From Dehalococcoidia bacterium (GTDB lineage Bacteria > Chloroflexota > Dehalococcoidia > Lucifugimonadales > UBA3495), in assembly GCA_965247605.1 (NCBI GenBank), contig CBDFHM010000011.1, positions 86,932-150,931 of the forward strand: a stretch of DNA of 64,000 nt. The letters are read 5' to 3'. Below, piece after piece: positions 39,862-64,000 of the stretch. A program made the position numbers and the translations under genes. A model generated the notes under the pieces. The model saw only the letters and a program-made list of their open reading frames with translations. It was not told the DNA's origin and ran no database searches. Position 1 is the first letter of the stretch. Each line of letters opens with the position of its first letter.

Positions 39862-39937
39862 GTCCCAGTAGCTCAGGGGATAGAGCGGCTGCCTTCTAAG
39901 CAGCGGGTCGCGGGTTCGAATCCTGCCTGGGACGCCA
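39862..39937 (+). tRNA. tRNA-Arg (anticodon TCT), CCA encoded
   Basis: Folded by hand: acceptor GTCCCAG/CTGGGAC, D arm GCTC-AGGGGATA-GAGC, anticodon arm GCTGC-CTTCTAA-GCAGC (anticodon TCT), variable GGGTC, T arm GCGGG-TTCGAAT-CCTGC, discriminator G, CCA. 76 nt. Confidence 0.9.
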
Positions 39938-40140
39938 CTTAAATCCTTTAGAACAGCTACACAATGCTATCTAACTTCCAATTCTAGCTACAATTTAGCT
40001 ATAAACTGTCAGTCCTATAGTGTATTGTATAGTCTCTTAACGTCCTATATAGTCCGCACGAAAACGTATGACGTAACGATAGACGTGCCAATTCAGAGCC
40101 ACTGTTCGGCCCTTAATACAATTGGGCACAGGGTAATAAC

Positions 40141-41313
40141 ATGCCGCAACGCAAAGGGAAGCATCCACACAACTCGCTTAGCGCAGCTTTCGTTAACACC
40201 GTTAAACAACCGGGTCGCTATGCTGACGGGAACGGACTGTATCTCCGGGTGGACCCCTCGGGGCGCAAGGGATGGACCCAAAAGATAACCATCCACAGCA
40301 AGCGGCGGGACTTGGGCTTGGGTGGTTATCCCCTGGTATCTCTCAAGGAAGCTAGAGAAAAGGCTCTGTTCAATCGGCGATTGGCCCGTTCTGGCGGCGA
40401 CCCCTTGGCAGAAAAACGCAAGGTTGCTGTCCCCACCTTCGCTGAAGCTGTCGAACAGGTGATAGCCTTGAACGCTCCTACTTGGCGCAACGCCAAGACT
40501 GCTGCATTGTGGACCGCCCGCCTGGAAACCTACGCTCTCCCGCAACTAGGGGACATGCCAGTAAACCGGATAACCCCTGCCGACGTGCTGGGAGTTCTCA
40601 TCCCGGTATGGACATCCAAGCGGGCGGTGGCCCAAAAGCTGAAGCAGTACATTCACAGCGTTATGGACTGGGCTGTTGTCAAGGGCTGGCGGCAGGACAA
40701 CCCGGCCAGCGCGGTAGCCGCCGTGCTGCCTAGAACCGAAGGGGCCAAGTCCCACTTCGATGCCCTACCCTACGCGGGGGTCCCAGCGGCGCTGGAGTTC
40801 ATACGGGCGTCCACTACCAAGCCCGCCACCCGGCTGGCGCTGGAGTTCTTGGTACTGACTGCCGCCCGCTCCGGTGAAATTCGTGCCGCCAGGCGGGAAG
40901 AAGTCTCTCTGGACTCCCGGGTCTGGACCGTTCCGGCGGCGCGGATGAAGGCAGGCAGGGAGCACCGCGTACCGTTGTCGAGGCGCGCCCTGGACATCCT
41001 GGAAGAGGCGCGCAGCCTGGATGACGGTCCCGGGCTGATTTTCCCCGGACGTTGGGGCAGACCGTTGTCGGATATGACTTTCACGGCGTTGCTCCGGCGG
41101 CTGAACATCCCCTGCGTACCCCACGGATTCCGCTCCAGCTTCCGGGACTGGGCGGCTGAGCAAACCGATGCACCGCACGCGGTCATGGAGGCGGCTTTAG
41201 CACATGTTGTGGGAAACTCTACCGAAGCCGCCTATTTTCGCTCGGACCTGTTCGAGCGGCGGAGGACGCTTATGATCCAATGGGCGGACTATCTGTGTGA
41301 GAGCGATGTGTGA
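40141..41313 (+). CDS. Tyrosine integrase, P4-like (DUF4102 arm-binding N-terminus)
   Basis: LSAAFVNTVKQPGRYADGNGLYLRVDPSGRKGWTQKITI...LGGYPLVSLKEAREKA. Catalytic part has LTAARSGE, HRVPLS, HGFRSSFRDWAAE, LAHVVGNSTEAAYFRSD. Lies 200 nt downstream of the tRNA. Confidence 0.95.
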   Translation: MPQRKGKHPHNSLSAAFVNTVKQPGRYADGNGLYLRVDPSGRKGWTQKITIHSKRRDLGLGGYPLVSLKEAREKALFNRRLARSGGDPLAEKRKVAVPTFAEAVEQVIALNAPTWRNAKTAALWTARLETYALPQLGDMPVNRITPADVLGVLIPVWTSKRAVAQKLKQYIHSVMDWAVVKGWRQDNPASAVAAVLPRTEGAKSHFDALPYAGVPAALEFIRASTTKPATRLALEFLVLTAARSGEIRAARREEVSLDSRVWTVPAARMKAGREHRVPLSRRALDILEEARSLDDGPGLIFPGRWGRPLSDMTFTALLRRLNIPCVPHGFRSSFRDWAAEQTDAPHAVMEAALAHVVGNSTEAAYFRSDLFERRRTLMIQWADYLCESDV

Positions 41314-41689
41314 GGATCAGAGCTATGGGCAGGACCCGGACCTGCTGAGGGCTATGCAGGATCAGGCCAAGGAGCACAACCCCTCGGCCATCTTCGTCGA
41401 AGACGCGGCCAGCGGGCAGTCGGTGGTCCAGAGCCTCCGGCGCGAGACCAGGCTGCCGGTGTTGCCAGTCAAGCCCGTGGGAGACAAGGTGCTGCGGGCC
41501 AACCGGGTCACCGGAACCGTGGAGGCCAAGAAGATCACGCTCCCAAGGACAGCCCCGTGGCTTCAGGCTTTCCGCGAGGAGCTGGCAGCCTTCCCCAACG
41601 GAGTCCATGACGACCAGGTGGACGCCTTCGTGGGCTGTCTCACGCAGTTCATGGGCAGGGCTGGAGGCATTGGCGGGTTCTATATATAG
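41297..41689 (+). pseudogene. Terminase large subunit, C-terminal (nuclease) fragment only
   Basis: IFVEDAASGQSVVQSLRRET.LPVLPVKPVGDKVLRANRVTGTVEAKKITLP..APWLQAFREELAAFPNGVHDDQVDAFVGCL: the typical terminase C-terminal block. The ATPase two-thirds is absent, and the fragment overlaps the integrase stop. Confidence 0.7.
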
Positions 41690-41752
41690 GTGGAGGGCAC
41701 AGGATACATTTGCAGTAAGGAGGCTTTCGGTGCCTGAGAAAGAGGGATAGGG

Positions 41753-41959
41753 ATGCCGCTCAGTGAGCACGAGGAGAGGGCGTCAGAGTCGCTTTTGAAG
41801 TTCCAAGAGATTGTAACCAGTGATTGGGGACTGCGTGCGAATAGTGCGGAATTCTACGGAGCTATACACACTCTTCAGTCATTTATCGTCCAGCACATGC
41901 TCCAGCGCCAGGAGCCAGAGTATTGGGCATCATGGTATCAGAAGGCGCCCGATGCCTAA
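41753..41959 (+). CDS. Hypothetical 68-aa protein
   Basis: GAGGG 7 nt upstream of the ATG. Non-repetitive, balanced composition. No recognisable motif. Confidence 0.35.
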   Translation: MPLSEHEERASESLLKFQEIVTSDWGLRANSAEFYGAIHTLQSFIVQHMLQRQEPEYWASWYQKAPDA

Positions 41960-41974
41960 GAAGGAGGACACACG

Positions 41975-42499
41975 ATGATACTTGGACGACAGATGCTAGC
42001 GATGCGGGGCATGTTGGGCTTGGTGAGACGGCCCAGAGGCGGCGTCCAGCGCGCCAACGAACCCTACGCCGCCATGGCCCAGGCGGGCGGCGGTACAGGG
42101 CTTACCACGGAGCAGATCACCCAGTGGATGAACAACCTCGGCAAGAGACAGTCGGGTGGTGTGGAGGGCTACTACCGCACCTCTGTTCCGGTCTACAGGG
42201 CGATAAAGCTACGGTCGGACGCCGTTGCCCGCACCCGGCTCAAGGTCTACCGCCAGGACTCTGACGATGAGTTGGAGTGGGTGGGTGAGGACGACCCTGT
42301 GCAGGGACTCCTTGACCGGGTGAATCAGGACTGGACGAGGCTTCAGCCGCGTCGTTGGCCTTGGAGATCATCGACGGGGTGTTTCGAGGCTGGCATACCG
42401 GAGGGTTGGTCGATGAAGAGGTGGTGGCCCACTCCGCCAGGCTGTCGGGATATCACAAGCGAAGGCTCATTCAGACGTTCAGGACGGCGCTCGGTATAG
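41975..42499 (+). pseudogene. Phage portal protein, N-terminal ~120 aa, then out-of-frame tail
   Basis: YYRTSVPVYRAIKLRSDAVARTRLKVYRQD...EDDPVQGLLDRVNQDWT is the usual start of an HK97-type portal. Similarity ends near 42345, and the remainder is R/W/P-rich junk. Confidence 0.65.
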
Positions 42500-42951
42500 A
42501 TATCCGGCCCAGGCTCTTGGACTCGGCCATCGAGCCGCTGATGTCGGCGTGGCGCCGTGAGAACATCTCGCTCATACGGACTATCCCAGAGCGGTTCCAC
42601 GGGTCGCTGTACCAGCGGGTGAGTGAGACGTTCGCGCAGCAGCCCTTTGACCAGCAGGCGCTATCGAAGGTGCTGAACCGAGAGTTCAAGGTATCGGGCA
42701 GCAACCTACGGCGCATCACAAGAGACCAGACCTCAAAGGCCGTTGGTCAGTTGACCCATGCGAGACACCGGCAGCTAGGGATACAGGAATACACCTGGCG
42801 GACGTCCCAAGATGAGCGGGTCCGCGTGACGCACCAGGCACTGGAAGGCAGCCCACAGAAGTGGGACAGCCCTCCGGCGGTAGGCCACCCTGGTGAAGAC
42901 ATCATGTGTCGATGCGTGGCCATCCCGGTCATCGAGGAAGCCGATGGCTGA
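42355..42951 (+). CDS. Phage head-morphogenesis protein (SPP1 gp7 / Mu F family), probably N-terminally truncated
   Basis: YTWRTSQDERVRVTHQALEGSPQKWD......GHPGEDIMCRCVAIPV matches the W.T..D.RVR..H..l.G....hp.CRC signature. Starts at TTG. Confidence 0.75.
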   Translation: MALEIIDGVFRGWHTGGLVDEEVVAHSARLSGYHKRRLIQTFRTALGIDIRPRLLDSAIEPLMSAWRRENISLIRTIPERFHGSLYQRVSETFAQQPFDQQALSKVLNREFKVSGSNLRRITRDQTSKAVGQLTHARHRQLGIQEYTWRTSQDERVRVTHQALEGSPQKWDSPPAVGHPGEDIMCRCVAIPVIEEADG

Positions 42952-43102
42952 GCGGACGGCGGCGCCTCAGACGGACTACAAGCCCCGCTGTTGGCGATGC
43001 CACCGGGTGCTTGCGGCGCGGCTGTCGAGGCCATGGGAGATATGTTGCAGGCGGTGCAAAGCTGTAAACGTTCGTGAGGCCGGTCTCACAACAACGGCGT
43101 GA
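42944..43102 (+). CDS. Com-like zinc-ribbon protein (52 aa)
   Basis: RCWRCHRVLAARLSRPWEICCRRCKAVNV has the CxxC..L.......eI.CxRCk..N layout of Mu Com-type proteins. The ATG overlaps the upstream stop. Confidence 0.5.
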   Translation: MAERTAAPQTDYKPRCWRCHRVLAARLSRPWEICCRRCKAVNVREAGLTTTA

Positions 43103-43195
43103 TGTGATAGCACTCTAGAATCACTGACCCCAGCTTCCACAATTGATCCGGAAGGCTACCATGTTGGGCAGAGACGGCCAAAATTAGTTTTCCAC

Positions 43196-43627
43196 ATGGT
43201 GCTCCTTGACGGAATATGTCAGACTAAAATCATGGAGGGAATACAGGCAGCATTACAAAACAAGATAGGGGACTTGGCACAGGCCAAGCAGAGGAGCAAG
43301 CGCCTCCAATCAGAGGAAGCGCGCTATACGTTTGTTTTGCATTCCGCTCGCAAGAAACTCGGCATCACCATCAATGAGTACTGCCTAACGGACACGATCC
43401 ATAAGCTGTCGAGCAACAGAAGCAGCGTACCTGGCTGGTGCTATGCCGCCAAGGAGAGCCTTGCTAATGGTTTGGGTCTGTCCCGCCAATCGATCCACAC
43501 CATGATAAATAAACTGAAAAAGCTCGACTTGGTAGAGGTAGATTCAGAGACCGGATATGTTCGCACAACTGAAGTATGGCGGGCTGAGGTAGAGGTCACC
43601 AAAGACCGAGTGTTCGGGACTAGATAG
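43196..43627 (+). CDS. Winged-helix DNA-binding protein (possible replication initiator or regulator)
   Basis: ESLANGLGLSRQSIHTMINKLKKLDLVEVDSETGYVRTT is wHTH-like. The stretch is visibly more AT-rich than its surroundings. An alternative start is at 43232. Confidence 0.55.
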   Translation: MVLLDGICQTKIMEGIQAALQNKIGDLAQAKQRSKRLQSEEARYTFVLHSARKKLGITINEYCLTDTIHKLSSNRSSVPGWCYAAKESLANGLGLSRQSIHTMINKLKKLDLVEVDSETGYVRTTEVWRAEVEVTKDRVFGTR

Positions 43628-43632
43628 CCAGT

Positions 43633-43752
43633 GTCAAACTTTTGACAGGGTGTAAAGAAACTTTACACGGTGTCGCCTGGCTATCCACAGGTGTAGAAAA
43701 TCATGACGCAAAGCGTCAAGAAAGTTTACGAAGGCGTAAATAATCTTGACAC
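43633..43752. promoter_or_regulatory. Array of AT-rich palindromes (operator or origin candidate)
   Basis: GTCAAA-CT-TTTGAC (43633-43646). GTGTAAAG-AAA-CTTTACAC (43650-43668). GTCAAGAAAGTTTACG-AAGG-CGTAAATAATCTTGAC (43715-43750, 13/16 matching arms). Followed by ATAGATATAGATAAACATAAATATA. Confidence 0.5.
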
Positions 43753-43854
43753 TATAGATATAGATAAACATAAATATACCAACAAACGGCTCTCCTCAAG
43801 GAGGCTCCCTATCGGGAATGAACTGGTTGGGGCCGTCGGTCAGGCTTAACAACC

Positions 43855-43993
43855 CCGCCCGACTCCGAGTTTTCCCCACCAGCCCTCTACTTGAGTTAGT
43901 ACAACATGCTGCGAGAGGGGAGGGCTGGTGGCTCCGTCCAAAGGACTTCGGGCCGTCACTAACGCGCCGACCGAAAAACTCGGAGTCGGGCGG
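43855..43993. repeat. Nested long inverted repeat (19-bp outer arms, 12-bp inner arms)
   Basis: Outer arm CCGCCCGACTCCGAGTTTT (43855-43873) pairs with AAAACTCGGAGTCGGGCGG (43975-43993). Inner arm CCACCAGCCCTC (43876-43887) pairs with GAGGGCTGGTGG (43920-43931). Confidence 0.7.
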
Positions 43994-44078
43994 CCTCCAC
44001 CGCCGACGGCCCCCACTGGCTGCCCGCGCCAGCCGCAGCTGGCCAGCGCGCTACTAGTCCAACTAACTCCAACTACCT

Positions 44079-44954
44079 ATGGCCAAATACACCTACAAGC
44101 GGTTCGCTCGAAATCCAGACCTCAAACCATTCCGCATGCAGGAACGAGACGTAGAACTGCTCCGACTGCTGGCAGACTACCGCTTCCTGGACACCTACCA
44201 AATCGCCTCGCTCCAACCCCGTGGACTGCGTAATCTGCGCCGCCGCTTGCAATATCTATTCCATGCTGGCTTGGTGGACCGACCGCCCAGGCAACACGAC
44301 TTTTTGAAGCCGCCAATGCCTTTGGTGTACGGTCTCGCTAACAAAGGGGCCGACACCTTAGCCGAGGTGCTAGAAATCGACCGAGGAAAGATCGATTGGC
44401 AGACCAAGAATAGGGAGGCTGGACTCCCTTACATCGACCACACCCTGATGATTTCTAGGTTTCGAGCAACACTAACCTTGGCGCTAAACTCCCTCGGCGA
44501 CACCTGCATGACTACCTGGCAGGAAGGGCCTCGATTGAAGGCAGGGGTTAAGTTCAAAGGCCAGCGTTTGGCTGTAGTCCCGGACGGCTTCTTCACCATC
44601 GAGCACAAAGGTCAGGACCACCATTTCTTTTTGGAGGCAGACCGTTCCACCATGACCAATGGACGATTCTTCCGCAAACTGCGGGCCTACTGGCTTTGGT
44701 GGAAAGCAGGTGGCCACAAGCGAAAGTTCGGCATCCCCCGATTTAGGGTTTTGACCGTAACCACCAGCGAAAAACGTAAAGAGAATCTCAGGAAACTTGC
44801 GAGGTTAGCTGACGATGGGAAGCGCGGTAGCCCCATGTTCTTATTTGCCTGTGACAAGAGCTTCAGCTTAGACGACCCCCAGACGATCCTTCAACCCATC
44901 TGGCGAACCCCTCTGAATGATACCGTGCACCCGCTACTATCAGATCTCCATTGA
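44079..44954 (+). CDS. Replication-relaxation family protein
   Basis: MQERDVELLRLLADYRFLDTYQIASL......LRRRLQYLFHAGLVDR...HTLMISRF...VVPDGFFTIE......FFLEADRSTM matches the family layout (wHTH plus nuclease-like core). Confidence 0.7.
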   Translation: MAKYTYKRFARNPDLKPFRMQERDVELLRLLADYRFLDTYQIASLQPRGLRNLRRRLQYLFHAGLVDRPPRQHDFLKPPMPLVYGLANKGADTLAEVLEIDRGKIDWQTKNREAGLPYIDHTLMISRFRATLTLALNSLGDTCMTTWQEGPRLKAGVKFKGQRLAVVPDGFFTIEHKGQDHHFFLEADRSTMTNGRFFRKLRAYWLWWKAGGHKRKFGIPRFRVLTVTTSEKRKENLRKLARLADDGKRGSPMFLFACDKSFSLDDPQTILQPIWRTPLNDTVHPLLSDLH

Positions 44955-45079
44955 TTGAATATATTGGGTCCAACAGCAGAAACAATAGGATGTCTCCGAT
45001 TCACTCGTGTAGCCCACGTAAAACGTCTTAAAGGGCCTCTAATGTGCCTTATATGCCCCATCGATACATATTGGTGGCG

Positions 45080-45116
45080 CTAGGGGAAGAGGCGTTGTTT
45101 CCGCCTCTTCCCCTAG
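45080..45116. repeat. Perfect 15-bp-stem hairpin with TTGTTTC loop
   Basis: CTAGGGGAAGAGGCG-TTGTTTC-CGCCTCTTCCCCTAG. There is no flanking T-run on either strand. Confidence 0.85.
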
Positions 45117-45247
45117 CTGAAACCTGCTTGTCCCTATCTACCCCGCCATTGTTTCCGCTGGCGAATTCTACGCCGTGGAAACAATGCCTGGGACAGAAAC
45201 AATCCAGCTCTTGTCAATTCTTGCGAACCCACCCCCAGCCAATGTGG

Positions 45248-45892
45248 TTACAGGTAAGTCTCGCGCTGGTCCCGTTTTCTGATGACGCGAGCCGGAATTC
45301 CATACGCAACAATCCCGTCTGGCAGATCCCGGGTCACCAAGGACCCAGCACCTACGACCGCATGCATGCCAATGCTGATGCCATGCAACACGGTCGCCCC
45401 AATGCCAACGGCCGTATAGTCGCCAATGTGGGCCGTTCCACCCGTCACGGCCCGCGGAGCAAAGGAGGCATAGTTACCTACCACATTGTCGTGTTCGACT
45501 ATCGCCCCTGTGTTGAGGATGCAATGCGCTCCTACCCTGGCGCCAGTATTGACGATGGCTCCCGCTAGCACTACCGTCCCCTCTGCCACCGACGCTCCCG
45601 CCGAAACCGTGGCGCCCGGATGAATGACTACGGCGAAGACCCCGTGGGGCAAAGTGGACCGGATGCGCTGGACTACCTGCGCCCGCCGCCAGTTGTCGCC
45701 AATTGCGACAATGAGATGGGTCTCACGACAGAGGTCCGGTAGGTCCCTATCAGTACCCAGCACAGGGTAGCCATGTACCGACCCCTCGGGGCTCCCGTCC
45801 GGTAATACGAAGCCGGGTGTGTAGCCGGCCAGCGTGGCCGCTTCAGCGACGACTCGCCCGTGGCCACCGGTTCCTGTGATCGCAAGTTTCAT
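45248..45892 (-). CDS. NeuD/PglD-like sugar acetyltransferase (Rossmann N-domain plus left-handed beta-helix)
   Basis: MKLAITGTGGHGRVVAEAA, then hexapeptide repeats (IHPGATVS.GASVAEGTVVLAGAIVNTGARVGAHCILNTGAIVEHD...IGIGATV). Confidence 0.8.
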   Translation of the reverse strand: MKLAITGTGGHGRVVAEAATLAGYTPGFVLPDGSPEGSVHGYPVLGTDRDLPDLCRETHLIVAIGDNWRRAQVVQRIRSTLPHGVFAVVIHPGATVSAGASVAEGTVVLAGAIVNTGARVGAHCILNTGAIVEHDNVVGNYASFAPRAVTGGTAHIGDYTAVGIGATVLHGISIGMHAVVGAGSLVTRDLPDGIVAYGIPARVIRKRDQRETYL

Positions 45893-46243
45893 ATCGGCCC
45901 CCATACGCCGAAGATCGAGTCTACGAGAGGTTGCGAACAGAACAACAACGTGGCCCGCATCAGTTGGGCAGGATTGAGGCCAATATTTAATGGGAGTCTC
46001 GCCGTCTCCGCATGGTCTTTCGATGTTCCGCCTGGAAACCCACTAGGCTCCGCTAGTTGCTCCGTTGATTGGTTTAGATGTTTGTTGAATGTTGGACCAC
46101 TCGGCTGGCCTGCGAGAGCCTAGGGCCTAGAAGGGCCGTTGGGCGTTATAGAAGCGGTCTGAAACCACGGCCCAGTAATGTTTAAGACATGGTACCAAAT
46201 TGCGGACTGCAATTCAGGCAGCCTATGCTCCTAGAAAAAAGAG

Positions 46244-47560
46244 CTACTCTATTACGAGTAGCTCTGCTGCGGAGATGGATGGGCGCCTAGGATACGATCC
46301 TTTATTCACCACTAATTCCGAGGTGAACCGCCGGGTCGTGACCCACTTGGGTAGCCATCCACCAGAAAGGCGGTAGGCGGGCAGGGCTGAGGCGTTCGCA
46401 TAGGCCGAAGTCGTGGCGGTGGGTAACGAAGTAACGCCCTTGACGCTGGCGCCGATGAGCAGCCACCAAAAGCCGCCAAGGTGGCCCATCCAAGTGTAAT
46501 AGTCCAACAGCGAGAGCAAAACAAGCGTTAGAAGTAGCCAGCGATGAACGTTATTGACGCCTTTGGGTTGGGACTCTTTGCTGGCGTGTCGGCGGGCAGC
46601 ACCCTGTTGTTTGGTTGGTCGAAGTGCCCAAAGCGTAATCCCGACCCACAGCCCGGCGGCGGCGATACCGGACTCGAAAAGGATCCTTAGTGGTACGTTG
46701 TGCAACCCAGGGTGCTCCGCTATCCCGCTGGGCAGGAACGTGGGGATGTGGGGGACAGCTAACCGCACGCCAACGTCTATCTTGGCGGCGTAGACCGCCT
46801 GCATGAATGAGTCCGTGCCCGCCACTGCGTAACCGGCGGGTGTGAACTGCCCCAGGGCCACCACCGCTCCGGCCACTGCCGCCCCAGCAACCGCCAAAGG
46901 CCGCCAATCGGCCGCTCGCAAAACCACCATCAAAACCAGCACGCCGGCTATGACCAACAGCCCCCAACGGCTGCCGGTGAACAACAGAGCAATGAGAAAT
47001 GGCACGGAGACCCATTTTAATGGTCCTGTTCTGTTTGAGATGGTGTAGACGACGGCAAGAGCCAGAAATCCAGCGGCCAAATTGGGGTTGTTGGCAAGCC
47101 CCGTGGGCGCTCCGTTGTTTATCAACGCCCCGTCACCTGACATCCCCCATTGCGTGAACCCCTGCCAGATTATCAACCCCGCATGGGCCAGCCACGCCAG
47201 CATTAGCCAAGCGAAGACCTGCTGTTGGTTGTTGATGAAGTACAGAATGAAGGATGGCACCATCCACAATAAGACGCCCAACGTCAGCTCCCAATTACCG
47301 GCACCCCAAATGATGCTCCCGGGGATGGCCAGCGCGTGTAATGCCAATAGAAGGGCGAGGCCATACAGGATCGGGCGTGGCCCATAGGACCGGCGGGAAA
47401 CCACCAGGGCCAGCGCCAAAGCCGTCCATCCGACGCCGATCCAGGGGCTGTAGAAGGACCGCACCAACAGGCTCGAGACGAGGAATAATGCGGTGGCTGG
47501 AGGGGCCAGGTCCTGAAGATCTAAATGCCAGCGGTCCAGCGCGGCTTTGAGCGCGATCAT
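46244..47560 (-). CDS. O-antigen ligase/polymerase-like (Wzy_C) membrane protein
   Basis: About 10 TM. LLFTGSRWGLLVIAGVLVL, and the periplasmic-loop motif AEHPGLHNVPLRILFESGIAAAGLW (cf. HN..L..l.E.G..G). Confidence 0.65.
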   Translation of the reverse strand: MIALKAALDRWHLDLQDLAPPATALFLVSSLLVRSFYSPWIGVGWTALALALVVSRRSYGPRPILYGLALLLALHALAIPGSIIWGAGNWELTLGVLLWMVPSFILYFINNQQQVFAWLMLAWLAHAGLIIWQGFTQWGMSGDGALINNGAPTGLANNPNLAAGFLALAVVYTISNRTGPLKWVSVPFLIALLFTGSRWGLLVIAGVLVLMVVLRAADWRPLAVAGAAVAGAVVALGQFTPAGYAVAGTDSFMQAVYAAKIDVGVRLAVPHIPTFLPSGIAEHPGLHNVPLRILFESGIAAAGLWVGITLWALRPTKQQGAARRHASKESQPKGVNNVHRWLLLTLVLLSLLDYYTWMGHLGGFWWLLIGASVKGVTSLPTATTSAYANASALPAYRLSGGWLPKWVTTRRFTSELVVNKGSYPRRPSISAAELLVIE

Positions 47561-47577
47561 CTGGGCTTAAATCGGCT

Positions 47578-48021
47578 TCACAAGAAAGTGCGGGCAATCA
47601 GGGATACCGCGCCGCCTGATGCCAGGAATGGGCCATAGGGGAGCGTGGCTGGCCGTATGCGGCTTGGGTAAATGAGTAAGATGATGGCCCCGACGCCTCC
47701 CGCTAGGCCGGCTATGCCGAAGGCCATCATCGCATAAGGGAAGCCCAGCATCAGCCCTACCATGCCGGCGAGCTTCACGTCGCCGCCGCCCATCCCAGCT
47801 GGGTACACCATGGCGATCAACAGGAAGACCCCACACGCGGACAGCCCCGCGAGTGATGCGTTTATCAGCGATGGGCCGAACGCGGGCCATAAACCCGCCA
47901 GCGCCAGCAGCGCCAGGATCCCTGGGTAGACGATCACGTTGGGGATAAGGCCAGTTTTGATGTCGGCGATCGCGATGATTGCCAGCAAGACCAGCAAGGC
48001 GCAGGTGATAGCGATGGTCAC
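47578..48021 (-). CDS. Small A24-family prepilin/preflagellin-type aspartyl peptidase (CpaA/FlaK-like)
   Basis: Start chosen at GTG 48021, which overlaps the upstream stop (GTGA). Has [11 protein letters not shown] and [19 protein letters not shown] (the two catalytic Asp motifs). Confidence 0.7.
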
Positions 48022-48797
48022 CTTGCGTCCAACTCCACGAAAGTCACCTTGGGGTCGAGTTCGCCGTCGCCGTGGATTACCGCCCTGACCAGAAAGTTTG
48101 TGGAAGCCGCGAACCGCGGGATCGCGTACCAAAGGCTGGCCTGAGGGGTGTAGGGTTCCACCGCTTCTCCGAATGGAGGCATCAACGCCAGCCATTTATT
48201 CGCAGACGGTTCGTAATACTCCACGGACAGCTTGACGGTGGCGCTGTTCAGGTTGTGGGCCCACTGGGCGCGGAACGACTGTTTTTCGAACCATTCCACG
48301 TTGCGGCGGGAGATTCGGTTCGGAAACTCCAGATTGGTGGCGTTCTCCACCAACACGCCCGAACTCTCAAAGAAGAGGATATGGTTCACGTTGGGCTTCT
48401 GGAGTGAGGCCGGCGCGGCGATCAGGAAGCCTACGTCTCCTGTCGGCCCCTGCGGGCCGGGCGGGCCAGCTGGCCCTGCGGGACCAGTCACGCCGGTGGA
48501 ATCACCCGCTGGCCCTGTGGGGCCGGGAAGCCCGGTCTCGCCGGCGGGTCCGGCGGGGCCCATGGCGCCAGTGTCCCCCGGGGGGCCTGGAGGTCCTGAG
48601 GTGACGGTGGCCTCTCCTGGAGGCCCAAGCCGTCCGATTTCTCCCTGTAACCCCTGCGGCCCGATGGCGCCCTGAGGGCCGGTGCAATAGCCGCCGATGG
48701 CGAACAGCACCAGGAAGCCGAGGAACACGGCGATGATGCCTTGAAGACCCCAACTTACGTTTCGTGCGATGTTATTGGGCTTTGGTTGTTCCATCAA
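48018..48797 (-). CDS. Collagen-like (G-X-Y repeat) protein with a pilin-like or TM N-terminus
   Basis: [36 protein letters not shown], then about 30 GXY triplets ([17 protein letters not shown]...[17 protein letters not shown]), then a ~130-aa globular C-terminal domain. Confidence 0.85.
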
Positions 48798-50289
48798 CTA
48801 TTCTCCACAGATGGGTAGTCCCGCGTTCGTACATCAGGGACAGCCACGGCACCTCTGGAAGGTCAGCCCACGGCTCAGCGACGTTGGGCGCCAACCAGAC
48901 GCCTGGAGCCCGCGCATTGTAATAAGGGAACCGGCTCTCGATCAGCACATACCCCGCGTTCAGACGTTGGACGCTGGCCGCCACATCACATCCCGACCGC
49001 CAGCCCAACACGCACCTCACCTCCCGGTCGGTCTCCGTCCAGGTCGGAGGAGGCTCCCAGGTCCAGGTGTGCGGCGCCGGCGTCTTGTGGAGGGCGGCGA
49101 TCCATAGAGCCAGGGTGAAGGAATTGCTGACCACCGCCCGGCCGTCATCGGGGATCAGGGCAATGGCGGTCTCCGTGTCCCGGCTGACCATCCGTGAATA
49201 CTCCGCCTGCCGGTTAAATTGACTCACGTACCCCACAGCTAACACGGCCGCCACGGCCACTGAGAGGCCCACAGCGGGTTTTAGCAGCCTTTCTGGTAGC
49301 GACGGCAGCCACTTGACGAAAACACACCACGTTATTCCGATGTAGAACGGTAGAGCCAGTAAATACCGGCTCCGGTAGAAAACATTGATGATCGTTTCGT
49401 CGGTTGACAGGAATATCAGCAGTGTCCCCAGCAAACAGGTCAACACGCCGAGGGACCGGAGCCAGGGTTCGCCGCCCTTGCGGATGAGGTAAAGGCCCAG
49501 GGGCCAGGCCAGGAGGAATTGGAACCATGATGAGTCGCCCCAGTGGGTGAGGTAGATGAAGGGGCCGGGGTAGTCAAGGACCCCGGAGACCGGGAGTACC
49601 TTGAGATACCAAGGGAGGGCGCCCAAGGCGATGGCACCGCCTATAAATAACGGGGGGGCCATCCGTAACAAGGTGGAAGTGCTGGTGCCGGCTGCCGGTC
49701 CGGCATCTTTATAACTCCGGTGGAACCACATCAAAGCGGACAGATAGACCGGGATTGTGACGATTGCCAGGCCGGCGGTGGTCTGGTTCACCCAAGGGAT
49801 AAGGCCGAGGCACGCGGCTAATACCCCGGCCTTCGGAAGTGACCATTGCCCGGCCAGCTCTGCCATTGCCCACCAGACCATTCCCAGGAGCGCGAAGCCT
49901 ATCAGCGGCAGTGCGCCGGTGACGATCATTTCGGCGTGTAGCAGATCCAAGAGTAGGAGGCCCGCCGCGAACATAGGGGCGAAGGCAGCCCAGGATAGGA
50001 GTGGTCCTGGGGCGCCCCCGATGCGGCGGGCCATCAGATACACGGGGACAGCGGGCAAGATGCTGGCAACCGCGGACCAGACTTTATACCCGACGTCGAT
50101 TCCGAGAAGGCTGGTGAACGGGACTAAGAGCCATCCTGGGGCCAGTGGCGGTCTTGGGAACCCCGCGCCGGTGGGCTCATAACCAAGGACGGCATTGACG
50201 TTTAGCAGGTACGCCCCACCGTCCACGCCCAGCAGGCCACCGTGATTCAGGGTGAGGACCAGGTGGAAGGCTAGAAGTCCAAGTATCAA
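48772..50289 (-). CDS. Large polytopic membrane protein, tentatively a GT-C-type glycosyltransferase (ArnT/PMT-like architecture)
   Basis: About 11-12 TM helices followed by a ~140-aa soluble C-terminal domain. The assignment rests on architecture and context only. Confidence 0.45.
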
Positions 50290-50307
50290 GGCGAGAAAGC
50301 GGATGGG

Positions 50308-50652
50308 CTAACTCCCCAGCCGCGACGCCAGAATGGTGGCCGCTCCAGCCAGCGGCAGTACCACCGCAGTTTCGGCCAGTGTGTCGACGTCAGACCTACG
50401 CCTTGTTGCTGCCGGGCGTTTCTTGCCAATCACCTTGGCGGGGAACCCGTGGAAGGGGCCCCGCCCTGCTTTTATATTGGAGACCGCTTGGGCCGCTTCT
50501 ACCATCGACTTGACGCCAACCTTGACGGTGCGGCCCCGAGTGTCTTTCCCGGTGATGGTGAAACCTTTCTCGGATGGCCTAACTTGTAAGCGAGCGGTGA
50601 CTTGATCTCGTTTGCTTGGCTTGACCCGCTTGCGGCCTATCGTGCGCGCCAT
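50308..50652 (-). CDS. Hypothetical basic protein with a hydrophobic C-terminus
   Basis: K/R-rich (MARTIGRKRVKPSKRD..., KKRPAATRRR). C-terminus is AVVLPLAGAATILASRLG. Confidence 0.45.
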   Translation of the reverse strand: MARTIGRKRVKPSKRDQVTARLQVRPSEKGFTITGKDTRGRTVKVGVKSMVEAAQAVSNIKAGRGPFHGFPAKVIGKKRPAATRRRSDVDTLAETAVVLPLAGAATILASRLGS

Positions 50653-50728
50653 GGGCCCACTCCCTCTATGGATATAAATAAGGCGGGGATCTCTCCCCGC
50701 CTTTGTTGCTGGCTGTTAGTTGGCGGGT

Positions 50729-50842: not shown

Positions 50843-50909
50843 CTGGCATTCCTCCTTCTAATTTGTCGCGGGTGATTTGATTTACCTGCTTGGAACGTTG
50901 AAGAAGGAG

Positions 50910-51287
50910 CTACCTAACCGCCGGCCCGCGGCCAGTGAAGCCGAGAGCGCCCAGACCCATCATGCCGACAGCTATCATGACGACAACCGCATAGTAGATC
51001 AGCGGTACGAGGTCGTTAAGTGCTTGGGCACCTGCGAAGGATCCGATATTGGCGTTCGAGCCGGAAGACGCCGCTTGCGCCAAAATGGTATCTGCCAGAA
51101 CTACGCCGACCACGATGGTAATGACGCCCATAACGATCAGCATGATACGGGAGTCGATGGCGCCGCGTTGATTGGCTAGAACACTCCGGGGGTCGCCAAC
51201 GACCGTCCCGAAATAGGCCAACAGGACAGCCATTTGGGTCGGTGCGGCGGCGCTCAGAGAGCTTAGCGTTGTTTGTACGGCTTTCAC
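50910..51287 (-). CDS. Hypothetical membrane protein (125 aa, 2-3 TM)
   Basis: RIMLIVMGVITIVVGVVLADTIL and LIYYAVVVMIAVGMMGLGALGF. Confidence 0.5.
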   Translation of the reverse strand: MKAVQTTLSSLSAAAPTQMAVLLAYFGTVVGDPRSVLANQRGAIDSRIMLIVMGVITIVVGVVLADTILAQAASSGSNANIGSFAGAQALNDLVPLIYYAVVVMIAVGMMGLGALGFTGRGPAVR

Positions 51288-53353: not shown

Positions 53354-53805
53354 CACAAGCAACAGACGAACTACAACAGCCTGACGATCAATCGTCCAAC
53401 GGCAACGCTCCGAAGCCCCGGGTTGGGGTCCAGGACGGCCTGGGGATTACGGGTGAGGGCGGCGGCTACTTCGAACTGCCGAAGATCCTACTAGAGGCGC
53501 CGGCCGACTTCTCGGAGCTGCTGGCTCGAAGTCGCCTGTCCTCGCGTCAAATCACCATTGCCACTCGTTTGCTGGCCAAGGCCGGGCGCTACGAGCGAGG
53601 TAGCGTGAAGGTCGAAGAGATCATCTTCAACACGGCCCGGATGCTGATAGGGAAAGACGGCGAGGCGCGGTCCGAGGCCATTCAGGCGTCCACCGGGAGC
53701 CAGACCTGGCAGTCGCGGCTCAAAAACGGGTGGCTGGGCAACTTGTTCGGCCGCGGGCAGGAGGGCCGCCCCAACAACGTGGCTCAACGTGAAGTGAACC
53801 AGTAA
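53350..53805 (+). CDS. Hypothetical soluble protein (151 aa)
   Basis: ATGA overlap with the upstream gene. No TM and no recognised motif. Confidence 0.55.
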   Translation: MTQATDELQQPDDQSSNGNAPKPRVGVQDGLGITGEGGGYFELPKILLEAPADFSELLARSRLSSRQITIATRLLAKAGRYERGSVKVEEIIFNTARMLIGKDGEARSEAIQASTGSQTWQSRLKNGWLGNLFGRGQEGRPNNVAQREVNQ

Positions 53806-54848
53806 TGCAACTTCAGACCGCGCCTCGCTTTGATGTCTACCCGAAGGCGCTCACGACGGCACACGAGTTTAGCGTGTACCCGTCGGCGACCCACGGCGAG
53901 GCGCGCGGTCCACTAATCATTACGCCCGAAGCGGCTATCGCCTATCACCGCTTCGACCCCGTCACCCTCATGTTGAGCGGCCGGCGCGGCCGCGGCAAAA
54001 CCGCCGCCTTGACCTACTTAGGGAGGTTCTTCGGAGACATATACCGGCGGCAGGGGTCGGACGTGCGGATAGCGTCCAACTACAACACCACAGTGGCGGA
54101 TCCCGACCTGCGCCGCCAAGACATCATGGACGATATCCTGAGCTTTCCGCCTTGGGCCACCAAGATGCTCGTGCTGGTGGACGAGATCGCCGCCTACTAC
54201 CCCAGCCGGAAAGCCATGGCGACCCGGAATGTTGACGCGTCAACCTTTTTGCAGCAGATCCGGAAGCGCGACATCGAGATGATTTTCACCACCCAGTTCC
54301 CGGGGATGTTGGACCAGCAAATGCTTGTCAACATCGACCTCTATGTGGTGGTGAATATGTGGCCGCGAGAGGGCTGGAACGCTGGGAAATACTGCGACCT
54401 TAAGATATGGGACTGGCACGGGCAATGGGCGGGCGAGCCGGTCCAGCCGCGGATACCGCCTCAGGGCCCGCCCACATGGTTCCGGCGGATGCACAACGTC
54501 AACCGGATCTTCGGGATGTACAACACCAAAGAGGTTATCGGCCGCGCTTGGGCCGATTTCGAGGAACGGGCCACGATCGACGCCCAGCATTGGGGTGGCG
54601 AAGCGGCGGCGGCGGAACTCGCGGTAATGGAAGCCCAAGCGGCGTCCCTGGCAGCAAGTCCGGAGCCCACGACGCTCTCCGAATATGTGACCGGACTGGG
54701 CCCCAGCTTCAATGTCGCCCATGAATACACCGGAGCACGGGCGTTCAGCGACGAGATCGAGAACGTCAAGGACTGGGAGCGGTTCTTGGAACTGATGGGC
54801 TTCGAGATTCTGCAGGAGCGCCGGAGCCGCATGGCGGTGCGGAGGTGA
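53805..54848 (+). CDS. Zot / inovirus pI-like P-loop ATPase (no TM segment)
   Basis: LMLSGRRGRGKTAALTYL (Walker A), VRIASNYN, MLVLVDEIAAYYPSRK (Walker B), and LQQIRKRDIEMIFTTQFPGMLDQQMLVNIDLYVVV (cf. the Zot block HRH.G.DI.LITQ....D..I). TAATG overlap with the upstream gene. Confidence 0.7.
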   Translation: MQLQTAPRFDVYPKALTTAHEFSVYPSATHGEARGPLIITPEAAIAYHRFDPVTLMLSGRRGRGKTAALTYLGRFFGDIYRRQGSDVRIASNYNTTVADPDLRRQDIMDDILSFPPWATKMLVLVDEIAAYYPSRKAMATRNVDASTFLQQIRKRDIEMIFTTQFPGMLDQQMLVNIDLYVVVNMWPREGWNAGKYCDLKIWDWHGQWAGEPVQPRIPPQGPPTWFRRMHNVNRIFGMYNTKEVIGRAWADFEERATIDAQHWGGEAAAAELAVMEAQAASLAASPEPTTLSEYVTGLGPSFNVAHEYTGARAFSDEIENVKDWERFLELMGFEILQERRSRMAVRR

Positions 54849-55096: not shown

Positions 55097-55284
55097 ACAC
55101 AATAGCGCACATGCTAGCCATGGTGGCGCTGCTCTGGTTGGGCGTGGATTACGGCTACGGAACGCTTGCCGAGCCGAATATCGGATTTGTGTTCTCGATG
55201 ATGTTCTTTCTTTGGATACCGCTGACGTTCAAGGCAGTTCTAGACGATATCCACCGGGCTGGGAGGAAGGATGACGGCGAGTAG
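55093..55284 (+). CDS. Small hydrophobic protein (63 aa, 2 TM, charged C-terminus)
   Basis: TTGA overlap (alternative ATG at 55111). MLAMVALLWLGV...FVFSMMFFLWIPLTF...HRAGRKDDGE. Confidence 0.5.
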   Translation: MNTIAHMLAMVALLWLGVDYGYGTLAEPNIGFVFSMMFFLWIPLTFKAVLDDIHRAGRKDDGE

Positions 55285-55561
55285 GGCGGTTAACTATATC
55301 GCCAACGAGTTGTTGGCCTTCACCATCGGCATCAGCGTGTTCTGGGCCTACGGAGTCCTAATGGTGGGGCTGCTTGCAGTCAGTCCGGCGGTGTTGGCGT
55401 TCGCGGCAGGACAGGGTGGCGGCGGCGTTTGCCTGGTACCTGGTAATAATCACCGTGCCAATGAGCGTTATGGGCTGGATGGAGATGAAACATCGGGGTT
55501 GGTGTCTGGCTCCATCCTTCACGCCAGCCCAATAACGATATCTTGCCTGTGCGAACGATAG
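55271..55561 (+). CDS. Small membrane protein (96 aa, 2 TM)
   Basis: LLAFTIGISVFWAYGVLMVGLLAVSPAVLAFAAG. Overlaps the upstream gene by 14 nt. Confidence 0.45.
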   Translation: MTASRAVNYIANELLAFTIGISVFWAYGVLMVGLLAVSPAVLAFAAGQGGGGVCLVPGNNHRANERYGLDGDETSGLVSGSILHASPITISCLCER

Positions 55562-55693
55562 TGGCCGCACCCGTCACAGTGATGTTGCTGGGTGGGGTGA
55601 TTGCAGGGATTTACGCGTCGTAGACGCCTGCAAGCCTTGACGTTTCCTAGGAAACGCAGCTCCGCCATCTTCCCAATGGGGCAGGAGGGACAG

Positions 55694-56752: not shown

Positions 56753-56901
56753 TACCGCTGCTGTTTGCCCCACTGCGGCTAGCGTTGGCCGCAGCGGGCC
56801 TGGTAACCAACCTCATTTCCAATCTGCTGGGCGCCCTGTTCATGTTGGGAGCGGTGGGCATTATCGCCGTGGTGGTGGTGGCTTGGTACAGCAGCACTTA
56901 G
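56749..56901 (+). CDS. 50-aa hydrophobic protein (major-coat-like or pilin-like in size)
   Basis: GTGA overlap with the upstream stop. Sequence (M)IPLLFAPLRLALAAAGLVTNLISNLLGALFMLGAVGIIAVVVVAWYSST. Confidence 0.45.
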   Translation: MIPLLFAPLRLALAAAGLVTNLISNLLGALFMLGAVGIIAVVVVAWYSST

Positions 56902-61833: not shown

Positions 61834-62396
61834 GCACAAATCTTTACATGGGACTCGTTACAGCGTTCATCGCTCTTACCATCTTGTCTTTCGTTGTCGA
61901 TAGCGCCGTGGGAATTGCCTCGACCAACCTAACATCTAAGGTCACCGCGGCCGCAACCACAATCCCGGTAAACACCACCCAGGGATTTAAGGCGACGAAT
62001 GGCCGGATTATCGTTCAGGGCGAGGCTATCTGCTACACCGCGTTGACGGCGACATCATTCACCGGCGCCACCCGTGGATGTTTGGATACCACCGCCAGCC
62101 CGCATTCCACTAACGACCGCGTGTATACCGAATCCGCCGGGCGCATCAATGACCTGGTCCAGTTCAATGAAGCTTCGAGCACGATCGACGATAGCAGCGG
62201 CGGCATCGTGGGGGCCATTAAAGGCACCGTCAGCGCCCTCAAAGCCGTACCAGGGTTTCTCGGCGACATCGCCCACATGCTGGCGTGGGATTACAGCTTC
62301 TATGACGGCAACATGGTCTATTTCAAGTACATCTTTCTGTATCCATTAAGCGCAGGGTTGGTCCTGGGCGGGCTGATGCTGTTGAGGGGGGTTTAG
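61830..62396 (+). CDS. Hypothetical bitopic membrane protein (188 aa)
   Basis: ATGA overlap with the upstream gene. N-terminal TM LYMGLVTAFIALTILSFVV and C-terminal TM YIFLYPLSAGLVLGGLMLL. Confidence 0.6.
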   Translation: MSTNLYMGLVTAFIALTILSFVVDSAVGIASTNLTSKVTAAATTIPVNTTQGFKATNGRIIVQGEAICYTALTATSFTGATRGCLDTTASPHSTNDRVYTESAGRINDLVQFNEASSTIDDSSGGIVGAIKGTVSALKAVPGFLGDIAHMLAWDYSFYDGNMVYFKYIFLYPLSAGLVLGGLMLLRGV

Positions 62397-64000
62397 ATGC
62401 CCTCGCAATCCGAGCAACTGCAAGATCTCGGTCTAACCGAGAATGAAGCGCAAACATTAATCGACCAAGGCCAAGCCGACCAGGTGCTAGAGGCCGTCGC
62501 CGATGCCGGTGGCGTCGCCGCCGTTGATACTCCGTCGCCGGAGCCTGTGTCGTCTCCCGAAGAACCGGACCCGGCCGTGGTCGAGCCCGACGAACCGGGC
62601 CCGGCTCCAACTGAAACATCCGGTACGTCGGACGATTCGCCCACCGCCTCGCCAACTGCGGATCAGCCGGTAGCCACTATCGGCAGTGGGGGCATCAACG
62701 TAGTAATCGGCGGCGTGAGTATTGGGACCGGCACAACGAGTCCAGCCGTCGCCACCCAAGTGTTGCGGGCCCAAGGTGTAGCGGAAGAGGATATCCTGGC
62801 GGCCATCAAACAAGTGGTTCCCGACGAAACGCGCCGACAGATTGAGCAAGCCGAAGCGGAAGTGGCAGTAACGGAAGATATTCTGGAGGACGTTCGCGGC
62901 GCTCTCGCCTCAGGCGTGCCCGTAAGCCCGAAGCTGTTACGCCGTCTCAGGGTGCCAGAATCTCAGATCGCCGGTATCTTGCGGCAACAGGCGGCGCTCC
63001 GGGCCTTGGCGCCGTTCAAAGAGGGTCAGTCGTTCGACCTCGTGGCGGCAACTCAGGCGGGTGTGAGCCTCAAGATAATGGCCGAGGCTGGTTTTAACCC
63101 TGCGGTTATCGACCGGGCTCGTGCCGCCGCCAGCGAATTGCCAGTAACGGAAGATATTCTGGAGGACGTTCGCGGCGCTCTCGCCTCAGGCGTGCCCGTA
63201 AGCCCGAAGCTGTTACGCCGTCTCAGGGTGCCAGAATCTCAGATCGCCGGTATCTTGCGGCAACAGGCGGCGCTCCGGGCCTTGGCGCCGTTCAAAGAGG
63301 GTCAGTCGTTCGACCTCGTGGCGGCGCTTGAAGCTGGAGTCCCTAGACAGACGCTCGTAGCGCGTGGTTTCAAGGCATCGGACTTACGAGAGGCAGAATT
63401 ATTCCTAGCAGCGAGGGCCGGTATAGCGCCGTTTACAGCTGCCGATGGAAGCGTTAACCTAGCGGCGGCGTTCGCCGCCGGGATATCTAGCCAAACGTTG
63501 CTGTCTGCGGGGTTCAAGGCATCGGACTTACGAGAGGCAGAATTATTCCTAGCAGCGAGGGCCGGTATAGCGCCGTTTACAGCTGCCGATGGAAGCGTTA
63601 ACGTAGCGGCGGCGTTCGCCGCCGGGATATCTAGCCAAACGTTGCTGTCTGCGGGGTTCACCCGCTCCCAGTTGCAGGAGGCGATCACCCCTGTAGGGGT
63701 TCCAACGCCGAAGCCGCGGCTGGTGCCGCTGCCGGGCGAACGGTTGCCGCTGCCGGATGATATTCGGCGTGAGGTGGCTTCGGCCAGGGCGGAGGCGTTC
63801 ATTGGGGTCGGGACTTCTAGCCGCTTTGTGGTTGATAACCCGGTGCTGTCGGCCGCCATTACTCGGTCTGAGATTATCAAGGGGTTTGCCGATGCGGTGC
63901 AGACAGGTGATGTGTCTGCCGATGACGCTCGAACCGGAATTGCTGAGGTTAACGAGCCGCCCGAATCGCGCCCGGAAGACCTGATCTATTTGGTGCCCGG
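62397..64000 (+). CDS. Large repeat-containing protein, 5' part (open to the window end; absent from the ORF track)
   Basis: The ATG directly follows the previous TAG. My translation is MPSQSEQLQDLGLTENEAQTLIDQG..., an acidic P/E/S linker, then repeated AG(V/I)S...L..AGF....L.EA units. No stop occurs in this frame through 64000. Confidence 0.7.
   Translation, partial: MPSQSEQLQDLGLTENEAQTLIDQGQADQVLEAVADAGGVAAVDTPSPEPVSSPEEPDPAVVEPDEPGPAPTETSGTSDDSPTASPTADQPVATIGSGGINVVIGGVSIGTGTTSPAVATQVLRAQGVAEEDILAAIKQVVPDETRRQIEQAEAEVAVTEDILEDVRGALASGVPVSPKLLRRLRVPESQIAGILRQQAALRALAPFKEGQSFDLVAATQAGVSLKIMAEAGFNPAVIDRARAAASELPVTEDILEDVRGALASGVPVSPKLLRRLRVPESQIAGILRQQAALRALAPFKEGQSFDLVAALEAGVPRQTLVARGFKASDLREAELFLAARAGIAPFTAADGSVNLAAAFAAGISSQTLLSAGFKASDLREAELFLAARAGIAPFTAADGSVNVAAAFAAGISSQTLLSAGFTRSQLQEAITPVGVPTPKPRLVPLPGERLPLPDDIRREVASARAEAFIGVGTSSRFVVDNPVLSAAITRSEIIKGFADAVQTGDVSADDARTGIAEVNEPPESRPEDLIYLVP
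62866..63325 (+). repeat. Direct repeat: two identical 184-bp copies spaced 276 bp apart (in frame)
   Basis: 62866-63049 and 63142-63325 read identically (CAGTAACGGAAGATATTCTGGAGG...CGACCTCGTGGCGGC). Confidence 0.9.
63368..63658 (+). repeat. Tandem 144-bp repeat, 2 copies, near-identical
   Basis: TTCAAGGCATCGGACTTACGAGAGGCAG... starts at 63368 and again at 63512. I saw one difference (AACCTA versus AACGTA). Confidence 0.9.

Follow-up and report, generated by a model that had tools for sequence, protein, structure and literature searches.

The stretch of DNA analysed here, in the following referred to as the window, comprises 64,000 nt of a Dehalococcoidia genome assembly (GenBank accession number GCA_965247605.1; 3.89 Mb in 13 contigs, bin completeness 92.5%, contamination 6.4%) and corresponds to positions 86932 to 150931 of its 395-kb contig CBDFHM010000011.1 (C11:86932-150931); positions past 64000 are given as window-equivalent coordinates. 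Foreign (non-core) DNA extends over 35.7 kb from window 39938 to window-equivalent 75614, with a GC content of 0.52-0.63 against a genome mean of 0.587. It is bracketed by two convergent tRNA genes, tRNA-Arg(TCT) on the left and tRNA-Glu(TTC) on the right, each of which possesses a tyrosine integrase just past its 3' end (at 204 nt and 55 nt, respectively), and its right limit, at tRNA-Glu(TTC), lies 11.6 kb beyond the end of the window. The locus probably represents a pile-up of at least three remnants of integrative elements, from left to right pieces A, C, and B, wedged between the two tRNA genes, with tRNA-Glu as the anchor of B.

tRNA-Arg(TCT) (39862-39937, plus strand; ARAGORN) forms the left anchor of the composite and is the sole tRNA gene detected in the window as well as a single-copy gene in the assembly. 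It is followed by a spacer (39938-40140; sequence read), a candidate region for the left attachment site (attL) arm, and by the P4-type tyrosine integrase of piece A (40141-41313, plus strand, 390 amino acids (aa)), in which the Pfam domains Arm-DNA-bind_3, Phage_int_M, and Phage_integrase are situated in one uninterrupted open reading frame (ORF) and score above the curated cut-offs. Paralogues of this integrase (58-72% identity) are found elsewhere in the same genome beside tRNA-Ser, tRNA-Ala, and tRNA-Met, at a distance of around 170 nt. The remainder of piece A (41331-43079, plus strand) consists of scraps of tailed-prophage head genes (terminase-like, portal N-terminus, Mu F), recognised by nucleotide homology and Pfam: 41975-42499 gives a weak match to Phage_portal (E 2e-4) over the first 53 of 321 profile positions, and 42355-42951 matches Phage_Mu_F (E 4e-16). 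The segment exhibits 89-93% nucleotide identity to C13:1113047-1115587 and C12:283774-286164, i.e., to the head-gene end of prophages of around 27 kb, relative to which about 1.06 kb is lost inside the portal gene. A tailed prophage (Caudoviricetes) with a complete set of head, tail, and packaging genes is not present, the scraps of terminase, portal, and Mu F amounting to 1.7 kb. In the fuller prophages, P4-like integrases lie beside tRNA-Ser or tRNA-Ala at the other end and on the strand opposite to the head genes, whereas integrase and head scraps are adjacent and co-oriented in piece A; since such an order is not obtainable by a single internal deletion, piece A is itself a rearranged remnant. 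The P4-type integrase would once have put an element into the 3' end of tRNA-Arg(TCT), of which the integrase and the roughly 1.7 kb of head scraps would be left. Within the genus, tRNA-Arg(TCT) is an integration hot spot, with a frameshifted P4-like integrase in G002 and a different integrase type in five other species. In G012, a displaced 49-nt 3' fragment of tRNA-Arg(TCT) (G012:C1:3745578-3745626) is found 271 kb downstream of the intact gene, a distance too long for a single ordinary island.

Piece C (about 43176-45247, plus strand; Pfam and repeat search) contains a winged helix-turn-helix (wHTH) gene (43196-43627), nested inverted repeats, a Replic_Relax gene (44079-44954; Pfam E 2e-23), and a region of GAAACAAT iterons and a hairpin. 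The palindromes comprise perfect 19-nt arms at 43855/43975 and a perfect 16-nt hairpin at 45079-45117. The closest relative of this module is found in a European Nucleotide Archive (ENA) contig (L104; 80% protein identity, 78-80% nucleotide identity), where the homology takes in the wHTH gene, the inverted-repeat region, and Replic_Relax (43176-44940) and then stops. There, the module is followed by a XerC-like integrase, which is unrelated to the P4 type and 28% identical to the 346-aa integrase beside tRNA-Glu, and then by the 3' 45 nt of tRNA-Gly(CCC), a displaced piece. The DNA beyond this piece is 99.7% identical to C10:108165-108738 of the present genome, in which tRNA-Gly(CCC) (C10:108135-108209) is intact and unoccupied and hence constitutes the empty site. 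From this arrangement, piece C is the core of a third tRNA-integrating island type of the same population, here without its integrase. The sister strain concerned (ENA sample ERZ26167216, L104:12865-13439) carries a Replic_Relax-type island with type I restriction cargo in tRNA-Gly(CCC). More distant Replic_Relax homologues sit among coupling proteins (L105), ParA, and primase, neighbourhoods which fit a role as relaxase or in replication. A paralogous Replic_Relax gene (44% identity) at C13:695-703 kb has HsdR-like neighbours resembling those of L104 and may belong to another island of this type in the same genome.

Piece B (about 45248-75614) includes two divergent operons, an insertion sequence (IS), and two integrase ORFs. 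The minus-strand operon (module 2, 45248-50652/51287) encodes five proteins named by Pfam, namely a PglD-like acetyltransferase (45248-45904), a 438-aa O-antigen-ligase-like membrane protein (46244-47560), an A24 prepilin-type peptidase (47578-48195), a collagen-repeat protein (48018-48797), and a 505-aa protein with multiple transmembrane segments (48772-50289), as well as a 114-aa basic protein (50308-50652) and a 125-aa protein with two transmembrane segments (50910-51287). The plus-strand operon (module 3, 51649 to 68563; ORFs, Pfam) encodes around 14 mostly membrane proteins up to position 64000, among them a Zot-like P-loop ATPase (53805-54848; Pfam and profile), proteins of 383, 511, and 1198 aa, and the 1333-aa repeat protein that is the last ORF of the window (62397-66398), and, past the window, products of 515 aa (66502-68049) and 195 aa (67976-68563); nearly every product other than the ATPase has transmembrane segments. 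Long in-frame repeats are situated within the 1333-aa ORF at window 62866-63660 and window-equivalent 64949-65180 (a 184-bp unit occurring twice with a spacing of 276 bp, as well as tandems of 144 bp and of 15-18 bp). Family matches are nearly nil in both operons apart from the five named proteins of module 2 and the ATPase, and PHROGs and NCBIfam searches with ten cargo proteins gave no match. Beyond the plus-strand operon follow a 264-aa gene (68560-69354, minus strand), ParB-like scraps (about 69530-70236, plus strand), an IS with a DDE transposase that is multi-copy in the genome (70702-72695), a 206-aa Phage_integrase ORF (73568-74188, plus strand), and the 346-aa Phage_integrase ORF (74519-75559, minus strand), which lies 55 nt from tRNA-Glu(TTC) (75615-75692, minus strand). 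Past tRNA-Glu, core genes begin with an argC-type semialdehyde dehydrogenase and then endonuclease III.

An earlier note on this stretch had read everything to the right of tRNA-Arg as one island inserted there. Concerning the inventory, it was right throughout: a P4-type integrase soon after the tRNA, decayed phage head genes, a wHTH and replication-relaxation block with palindromes, two divergent operons of mostly unrecognisable proteins, the accessory, mobile-element character of the DNA, a mosaic of at least three modules, and a right end outside the window are all found.

The ownership of the two operons is different, as a second copy in the same assembly indicates. Contig C10:1-36115 is colinear with window-equivalent 81650 back to 46337. 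Over an 8.5-kb segment that takes in the core flank, tRNA-Glu, and the integrases, the two contigs are more than 99% identical (9 mismatches, 10 indels); module 3 (C10:13400-28900) exhibits 84-67% nucleotide identity, and module 2 (C10:29342-36160) about 70%, up to the 438-aa gene. On C10, no P4-like integrase and no homologue of anything within 40141-45904 is found. The order of tRNA-Glu, argC, and endonuclease III is conserved across the genus and outside it, and six species of the genus possess, 0.1-1.5 kb past tRNA-Glu, sequence that corresponds to C10 from position 61842 onward, the native neighbour starting already 0.1-0.2 kb past the tRNA in G001 and G002. C10:6019-61840 hence represents 55.8 kb of DNA inserted at tRNA-Glu and flanked by native sequence at either end. 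The foreign DNA of C11 likewise ends at tRNA-Glu with an integrase of its own, the two operons (roughly 20 kb of the supposed 24-kb island) have their colinear copy anchored there, and only around 3 kb (integrase and phage scraps) are attributable to tRNA-Arg, so that the claim of a single tRNA-Arg island is not supported. B would be anchored at tRNA-Glu(TTC) by the 346-aa integrase, which presumably mobilised it.

Between the C10 and C11 copies, 11 of 12 gene pairs exhibit ratios of nonsynonymous to synonymous substitution rates (dN/dS) of 0.11-0.34 (0.11-0.28 in module 2, 0.15-0.34 in module 3), the remaining pair being saturated at synonymous sites; such values indicate that the genes of piece B are maintained by purifying selection. 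The IS (1,994 bp, 566-aa DDE transposase of the DDE_Tnp_1_6/DUF772 type) occurs in six or more almost identical copies (window 1-837, i.e., C11:85776-87768; window-equivalent 70702-72695; C10:31029-32970, 64729-66719, 113351-115348, and 260309-262302), one of which breaks the 505-like gene of the C10 island, while another replaces 978 bp in the C11 island.

The same site is occupied in a relative from another family of the order. In G065 (OZ252215.1, a Dehalococcoidia metagenome-assembled genome), 47-bp perfect repeats of the 3' end of tRNA-Glu(TTC) delimit a 44.7-kb element that occupies the orthologous tRNA-Glu/argC site, has an integrase 44% identical to the 346-aa protein next to the tRNA, and contains homologues of the ATPase, of the 505-aa protein, and of the C-terminal part of the 1333-aa protein (tblastn, profile); a 383-aa-like gene was not detected in it. 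In this relative, the 47-bp direct repeats at the orthologous tRNA-Glu are made by a member of the integrase family to which the 346-aa protein belongs. The G065 element also contains a fourfold tandem repeat of a 3.1-kb unit (107-, 146-, and 563-aa ORFs) at 39.5-48.7 kb of the concatenated loci L086-L088. Of seven further Dehalococcoidia homologues of the 346-aa integrase, five immediately follow a tRNA gene, which in three cases is tRNA-Glu(TTC); the integrases that adjoin tRNA-Glu(TTC) in three other genomes are 44-53% identical to the 346-aa protein. The gene order in G042 and G052 is 438-like (minus), 505-like (minus), ATPase (plus), 383-like (plus), integrase (minus), and tRNA (minus), which is the arrangement toward tRNA-Glu and not toward tRNA-Arg and supports the ownership of the cargo by the former. 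The ATPase co-occurs with 505-like and 438-like genes in G042, G052, and G062, and with a 505-like gene in G065.

Attachment sites were searched for in the contig and the assembly as repeats of the 3' ends of the two tRNAs, both exact and with mismatches allowed, and by Smith-Waterman scans against a null of random 36-kb segments. For the 3' end of tRNA-Arg, no repeat exists in the window, as the earlier note had reported, nor in the 395-kb contig or the other twelve contigs, and the best alignments stay within the null; the direct repeat that the note had expected further downstream (attR) is thus not there. One candidate, a 10-nt sequence flanked by two iterons at 45185 (TGCCTGGGAC) that matches the acceptor arm of tRNA-Arg, was rejected, around 0.5 such matches being expected by chance in 36 kb. 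The proposed comparison with island-free relatives had a divided outcome: it revealed the empty site at tRNA-Glu, but the native right flank of tRNA-Arg was not definable from the closest relative G010 and ten others, similarity being limited to the tRNA itself. To the left of tRNA-Arg, most species have not the DUF1501 gene found at this place but the orthologue of C11:12550-13515, a segment situated 114 kb away in the present genome. With its left neighbour displaced and no native right flank, the tRNA-Arg locus is rearranged on both sides. The NHL/DUF1800/DUF1501 cassettes (window 35656-39412 and many other loci) are highly multi-copy in the genus, with dozens of paralogues per genome, and the one that precedes tRNA-Arg here is not its ancestral neighbour.

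Concerning its distribution, the ATPase is absent from all 39 other species of the genus and was found in 7 of 200 genomes sampled from the order. In G073, three B-like copies are 98% identical, and one of them is a 32.7-kb unit bounded by a 17-nt exact repeat (19/20 nt) of the tRNA-Ala 3' end; the copies lie near 731, 1444, and 1608 kb of G073:C2 (loci L068-L073, core around 13-20 kb). Two of them adjoin different tRNAs (Ala-CGC, Arg-TCG) with different P4-like integrases. The copies suggest recent activity with swapping of integrases. B is a member of a family of elements of 33-56 kb in Dehalococcoidia (SAR202-type Chloroflexota). What defines the family is the Zot-like ATPase together with membrane enzymes of GT-C-like/O-antigen-ligase-like type and a set of adjoining membrane and surface proteins. 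The 17-kb block of membrane proteins recurs, conserved and in the same order, in at least 55 metagenome contigs; homologues of the 383-aa protein number 55 in metagenomes (37-55% identity), and module 3 is colinear in two IMG/VR contigs and several long environmental contigs.

In a profile comparison of the ATPase with the Protein Data Bank (PDB), its best match is 2r2a (E 6e-5), the Zot N-terminal domain of Neisseria meningitidis, followed weakly by AAA+ proteins; the match to Pfam Zot (E 0.004, 17 bits) lies below the curated cut-off of 20.3, and the protein is without a transmembrane anchor. No match was obtained by tblastn against 50,697 phage records, and a scan of genome contigs with the two-copy ATPase alignment found no relative; a 25%-identical relative is encoded by a 7.2-kb IMG/VR contig. 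The 383-aa protein is predicted by AlphaFold (predicted local distance difference test score, pLDDT, 85) to consist of an N-terminal helix, an Ig-like sandwich, and a C-terminal helical membrane anchor, and a Foldseek search of this model against PDB and BFVD gave generic beta-sandwich matches only (TM-score <=0.28). Our best guess is that the cargo is either a temperate non-tailed (membrane-containing or filament-like) virus or a mobile island for a surface structure and its glycosylation. A more specific possibility, hinted at by the conserved colinear 17-kb block, the purifying selection, and the three near-identical copies in one genome, is put forward tentatively and with more doubt than confidence: piece B might represent an undescribed family of temperate non-tailed viruses of SAR202-type Dehalococcoidia, with genomes of 33-56 kb, membrane-containing or filament-like virions assembled by the soluble Zot-like ATPase, integration into tRNA genes by exchangeable tyrosine integrases, and a surface-glycosylation module of their own.

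A distance of 254 kb to 1.45 Mb separates tRNA-Arg from tRNA-Glu in the relatives, and a rearrangement would have joined the two loci here. As for the order of events, an inversion after the insertions, with one end in the tRNA-Arg island and the other in the tRNA-Glu island, would yield exactly the observed head-to-head order and would carry both distal attachment sites to a reciprocal junction. Such a junction was not found in the assembly. As the distal sites of all three pieces are gone and the tRNA loci would have been joined by rearrangement, the composite is probably locked in place and would be incapable of excision. Contig-end overlaps with 99.6-99.9% identity are found between C11:1-11286 and C12:1001351-1012643, between C5 and C11:332121-339154, and between C10:1-8499 and C11:160065-168582; they suggest that repeats or strain variants were left unresolved in the bin. 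A 1,226-bp repeat, probably a small IS, is present at window 10942-12167 and at least eight other places in C10 and C11 (99.3-99.9% identity).

Several observations weigh against a composite with B anchored at tRNA-Glu. An attR-type repeat of tRNA-Glu is absent as well, from both C11 and C10 as from the assembly as a whole, and here, too, the best alignments stay within the null, such that the C10 island, too, lacks the textbook signature; the block of modules 2 and 3 in G065 is inverted relative to the tRNA in comparison to the present genome; and the assignment of 43080-46243 (wHTH, Replic_Relax, PglD), be it to B or to a separate element, is based on analogy and a single environmental contig. 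Piece C (43176-45247), treated here as a separate remnant, could instead be a replication module recruited by B; at that end, other B-type elements possess replication or partition genes unrelated to it (ParB and DnaA_N on C10, a large primase-like protein in G073). Furthermore, the integrases that accompany the B-like cargo of G042, G052, and G073 are P4-like and share 56-63% identity with the one beside tRNA-Arg, which could accordingly once have been part of a B-like element. The same observation speaks for a single tRNA-Arg(TCT) island formed by the P4-type integrase, of about 30 kb and reaching to about 69-70.7 kb, whose attR was destroyed, e.g., by the IS and an adjacent deletion, the block of tRNA-Glu and integrases then being an older unrelated remnant. 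The 32.7-kb G073 copy with its attachment repeats comes near the size of 39938-70700, the IS and the 978-bp deletion relative to C10 lie exactly where attR would be expected, and, with the near-identical C10/C11 segment stopping at about 69293, the tRNA-Glu integrase arm could be a shared older flank. On C10, however, the cargo runs directly into tRNA-Glu in the absence of any P4-like integrase, and in G042 and G052 the integrase and tRNA stand downstream of the plus operon, i.e., on what is here the tRNA-Glu side. The integrase is moreover fused to tailed-phage scraps, the wHTH and Replic_Relax genes derive from another island type, and no repeat of tRNA-Arg exists. We regard the single-island explanation as rather unlikely, though not without weight; the P4-like integrases found with B-like cargo imply that integrase modules are exchanged within the element family.

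The juxtaposition might also be an artefact of metagenome assembly or binning, in which two co-occurring strains have the tRNA-Glu arm in common and the path of C11 jumps to another haplotype or locus, either at the IS or in the 8.5-12 kb that are shared; modules 2 and 3 of C11 would then not truly adjoin tRNA-Glu, or tRNA-Arg would not truly adjoin them. The contamination of the bin, the overlaps of C10, C12, and C5 with C11, the 2-kb IS with its six or more copies lying between the shared segments, and the twofold presence of both argC, which looks essential, and tRNA-Glu(TTC) would fit such an error. A switch at the IS would nevertheless leave the topology unchanged, as C11 is colinear with C10 on both sides of it; no repeat that could cause a false join exists at the internal junctions near 41.3, 43.08, and 45.25 kb, and the cargo specific to C11 (67-84% identity to C10) is continuous into both neighbours. 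With this colinearity and these repeat-free junctions, an artefact is considered unlikely. A further reservation about the tRNA-Glu anchoring is that the near-identical tRNA-Glu arms may stem from two co-occurring strains in one bin (C10 native, C11 rearranged); they may instead reflect a true duplication. That the stretch is ordinary core genome of the lineage without any island finds a point in its favour in a GC content not far from the genome mean, but it is scarcely tenable in view of the absence of the ATPase from the rest of the genus and its patchy occurrence in the order, the two integrases, the IS, the phage scraps, the diverged second copy, and the empty tRNA-Glu site in relatives. 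The composite of at least three remnants, with B belonging to tRNA-Glu, hence remains the preferred explanation.

As an island, the locus is of an ordinary kind, with tRNA hot spots, tyrosine integrases, decay, and stacking as textbook phenomena. The useful correction concerns ownership: the integrase visible in the window is not the owner of the large cargo, and a search for attR, for an excision product, or for an empty attB starting from tRNA-Arg, as had been proposed, would fail, the right site being tRNA-Glu(TTC). A recurrent family of mobile elements with repeat-bounded relatives is now defined in SAR202-type Dehalococcoidia, and its 17-kb core appears most worth study.

Among known systems, P4-type islands that decay and accumulate at tRNA hot spots, such as the one at pheV of E. 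coli (PMC11537424), are similar in their P4-type domain architecture, in a tRNA hot spot which different elements reuse within a genus, and in their mosaic, partly deleted content; the present locus differs in its SAR202-type host, in the lack of recognisable virulence or metabolic genes, and in that the bulk of the cargo belongs to the element of the neighbouring tRNA. Mobilisable and conjugative elements with Replic_Relax (PF13814) share the upstream wHTH gene, the flanking inverted repeats, and the iterons, with homologues beside integrases (L104) or coupling proteins (L105), whereas the module found here is without coupling protein, VirB4, or an integrase of its own; of the gene set of integrative and conjugative elements, Replic_Relax is the only one present, and neither a type IV coupling protein nor VirB4 was matched in Pfam, NCBIfam, or PHROGs. 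The pI/Zot proteins (PF05707) of filamentous phages are the best match of the ATPase profile and share the order of Walker A and B, and, as in filamentous phages, small membrane proteins and large C-terminally anchored proteins are encoded beside the ATPase. Compared to inoviruses, with genomes of about 5-15 kb, the B element is, however, 3-6 times larger, its conserved block alone measuring around 17 kb, and no rolling-circle Rep family was matched by the proteins of piece B in the same three databases.

The closest counterpart is the G065 element, of which we found no description in print and which shares the tRNA-Glu-argC site, an integrase of 44% identity, the Zot-like ATPase, a 505-like enzyme, and the C-terminal part of the 1333-aa protein; it differs by its 47-bp repeats, the inverted operon block, the fourfold 3.1-kb tandem repeat, and other replication genes. 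Islands as defined for Islander consist of a tyrosine integrase beside an intact tRNA gene and a displaced fragment of that tRNA at the far end (PMC4383910). Both tRNA genes of the present locus conform in that a tyrosine integrase follows 55-204 nt downstream on the same strand, together with accessory cargo, and the full signature is realised in relatives (47 bp in G065, 17 nt exact and 19/20 nt overall in G073, and the 45-nt piece of tRNA-Gly in L104). Here, in contrast, no displaced fragment of either tRNA is found, and the two junctions stand opposite one another without intervening native DNA. The locus would illustrate how two island junctions are brought face to face by rearrangement, with intact integrase genes left behind without their partner sites.

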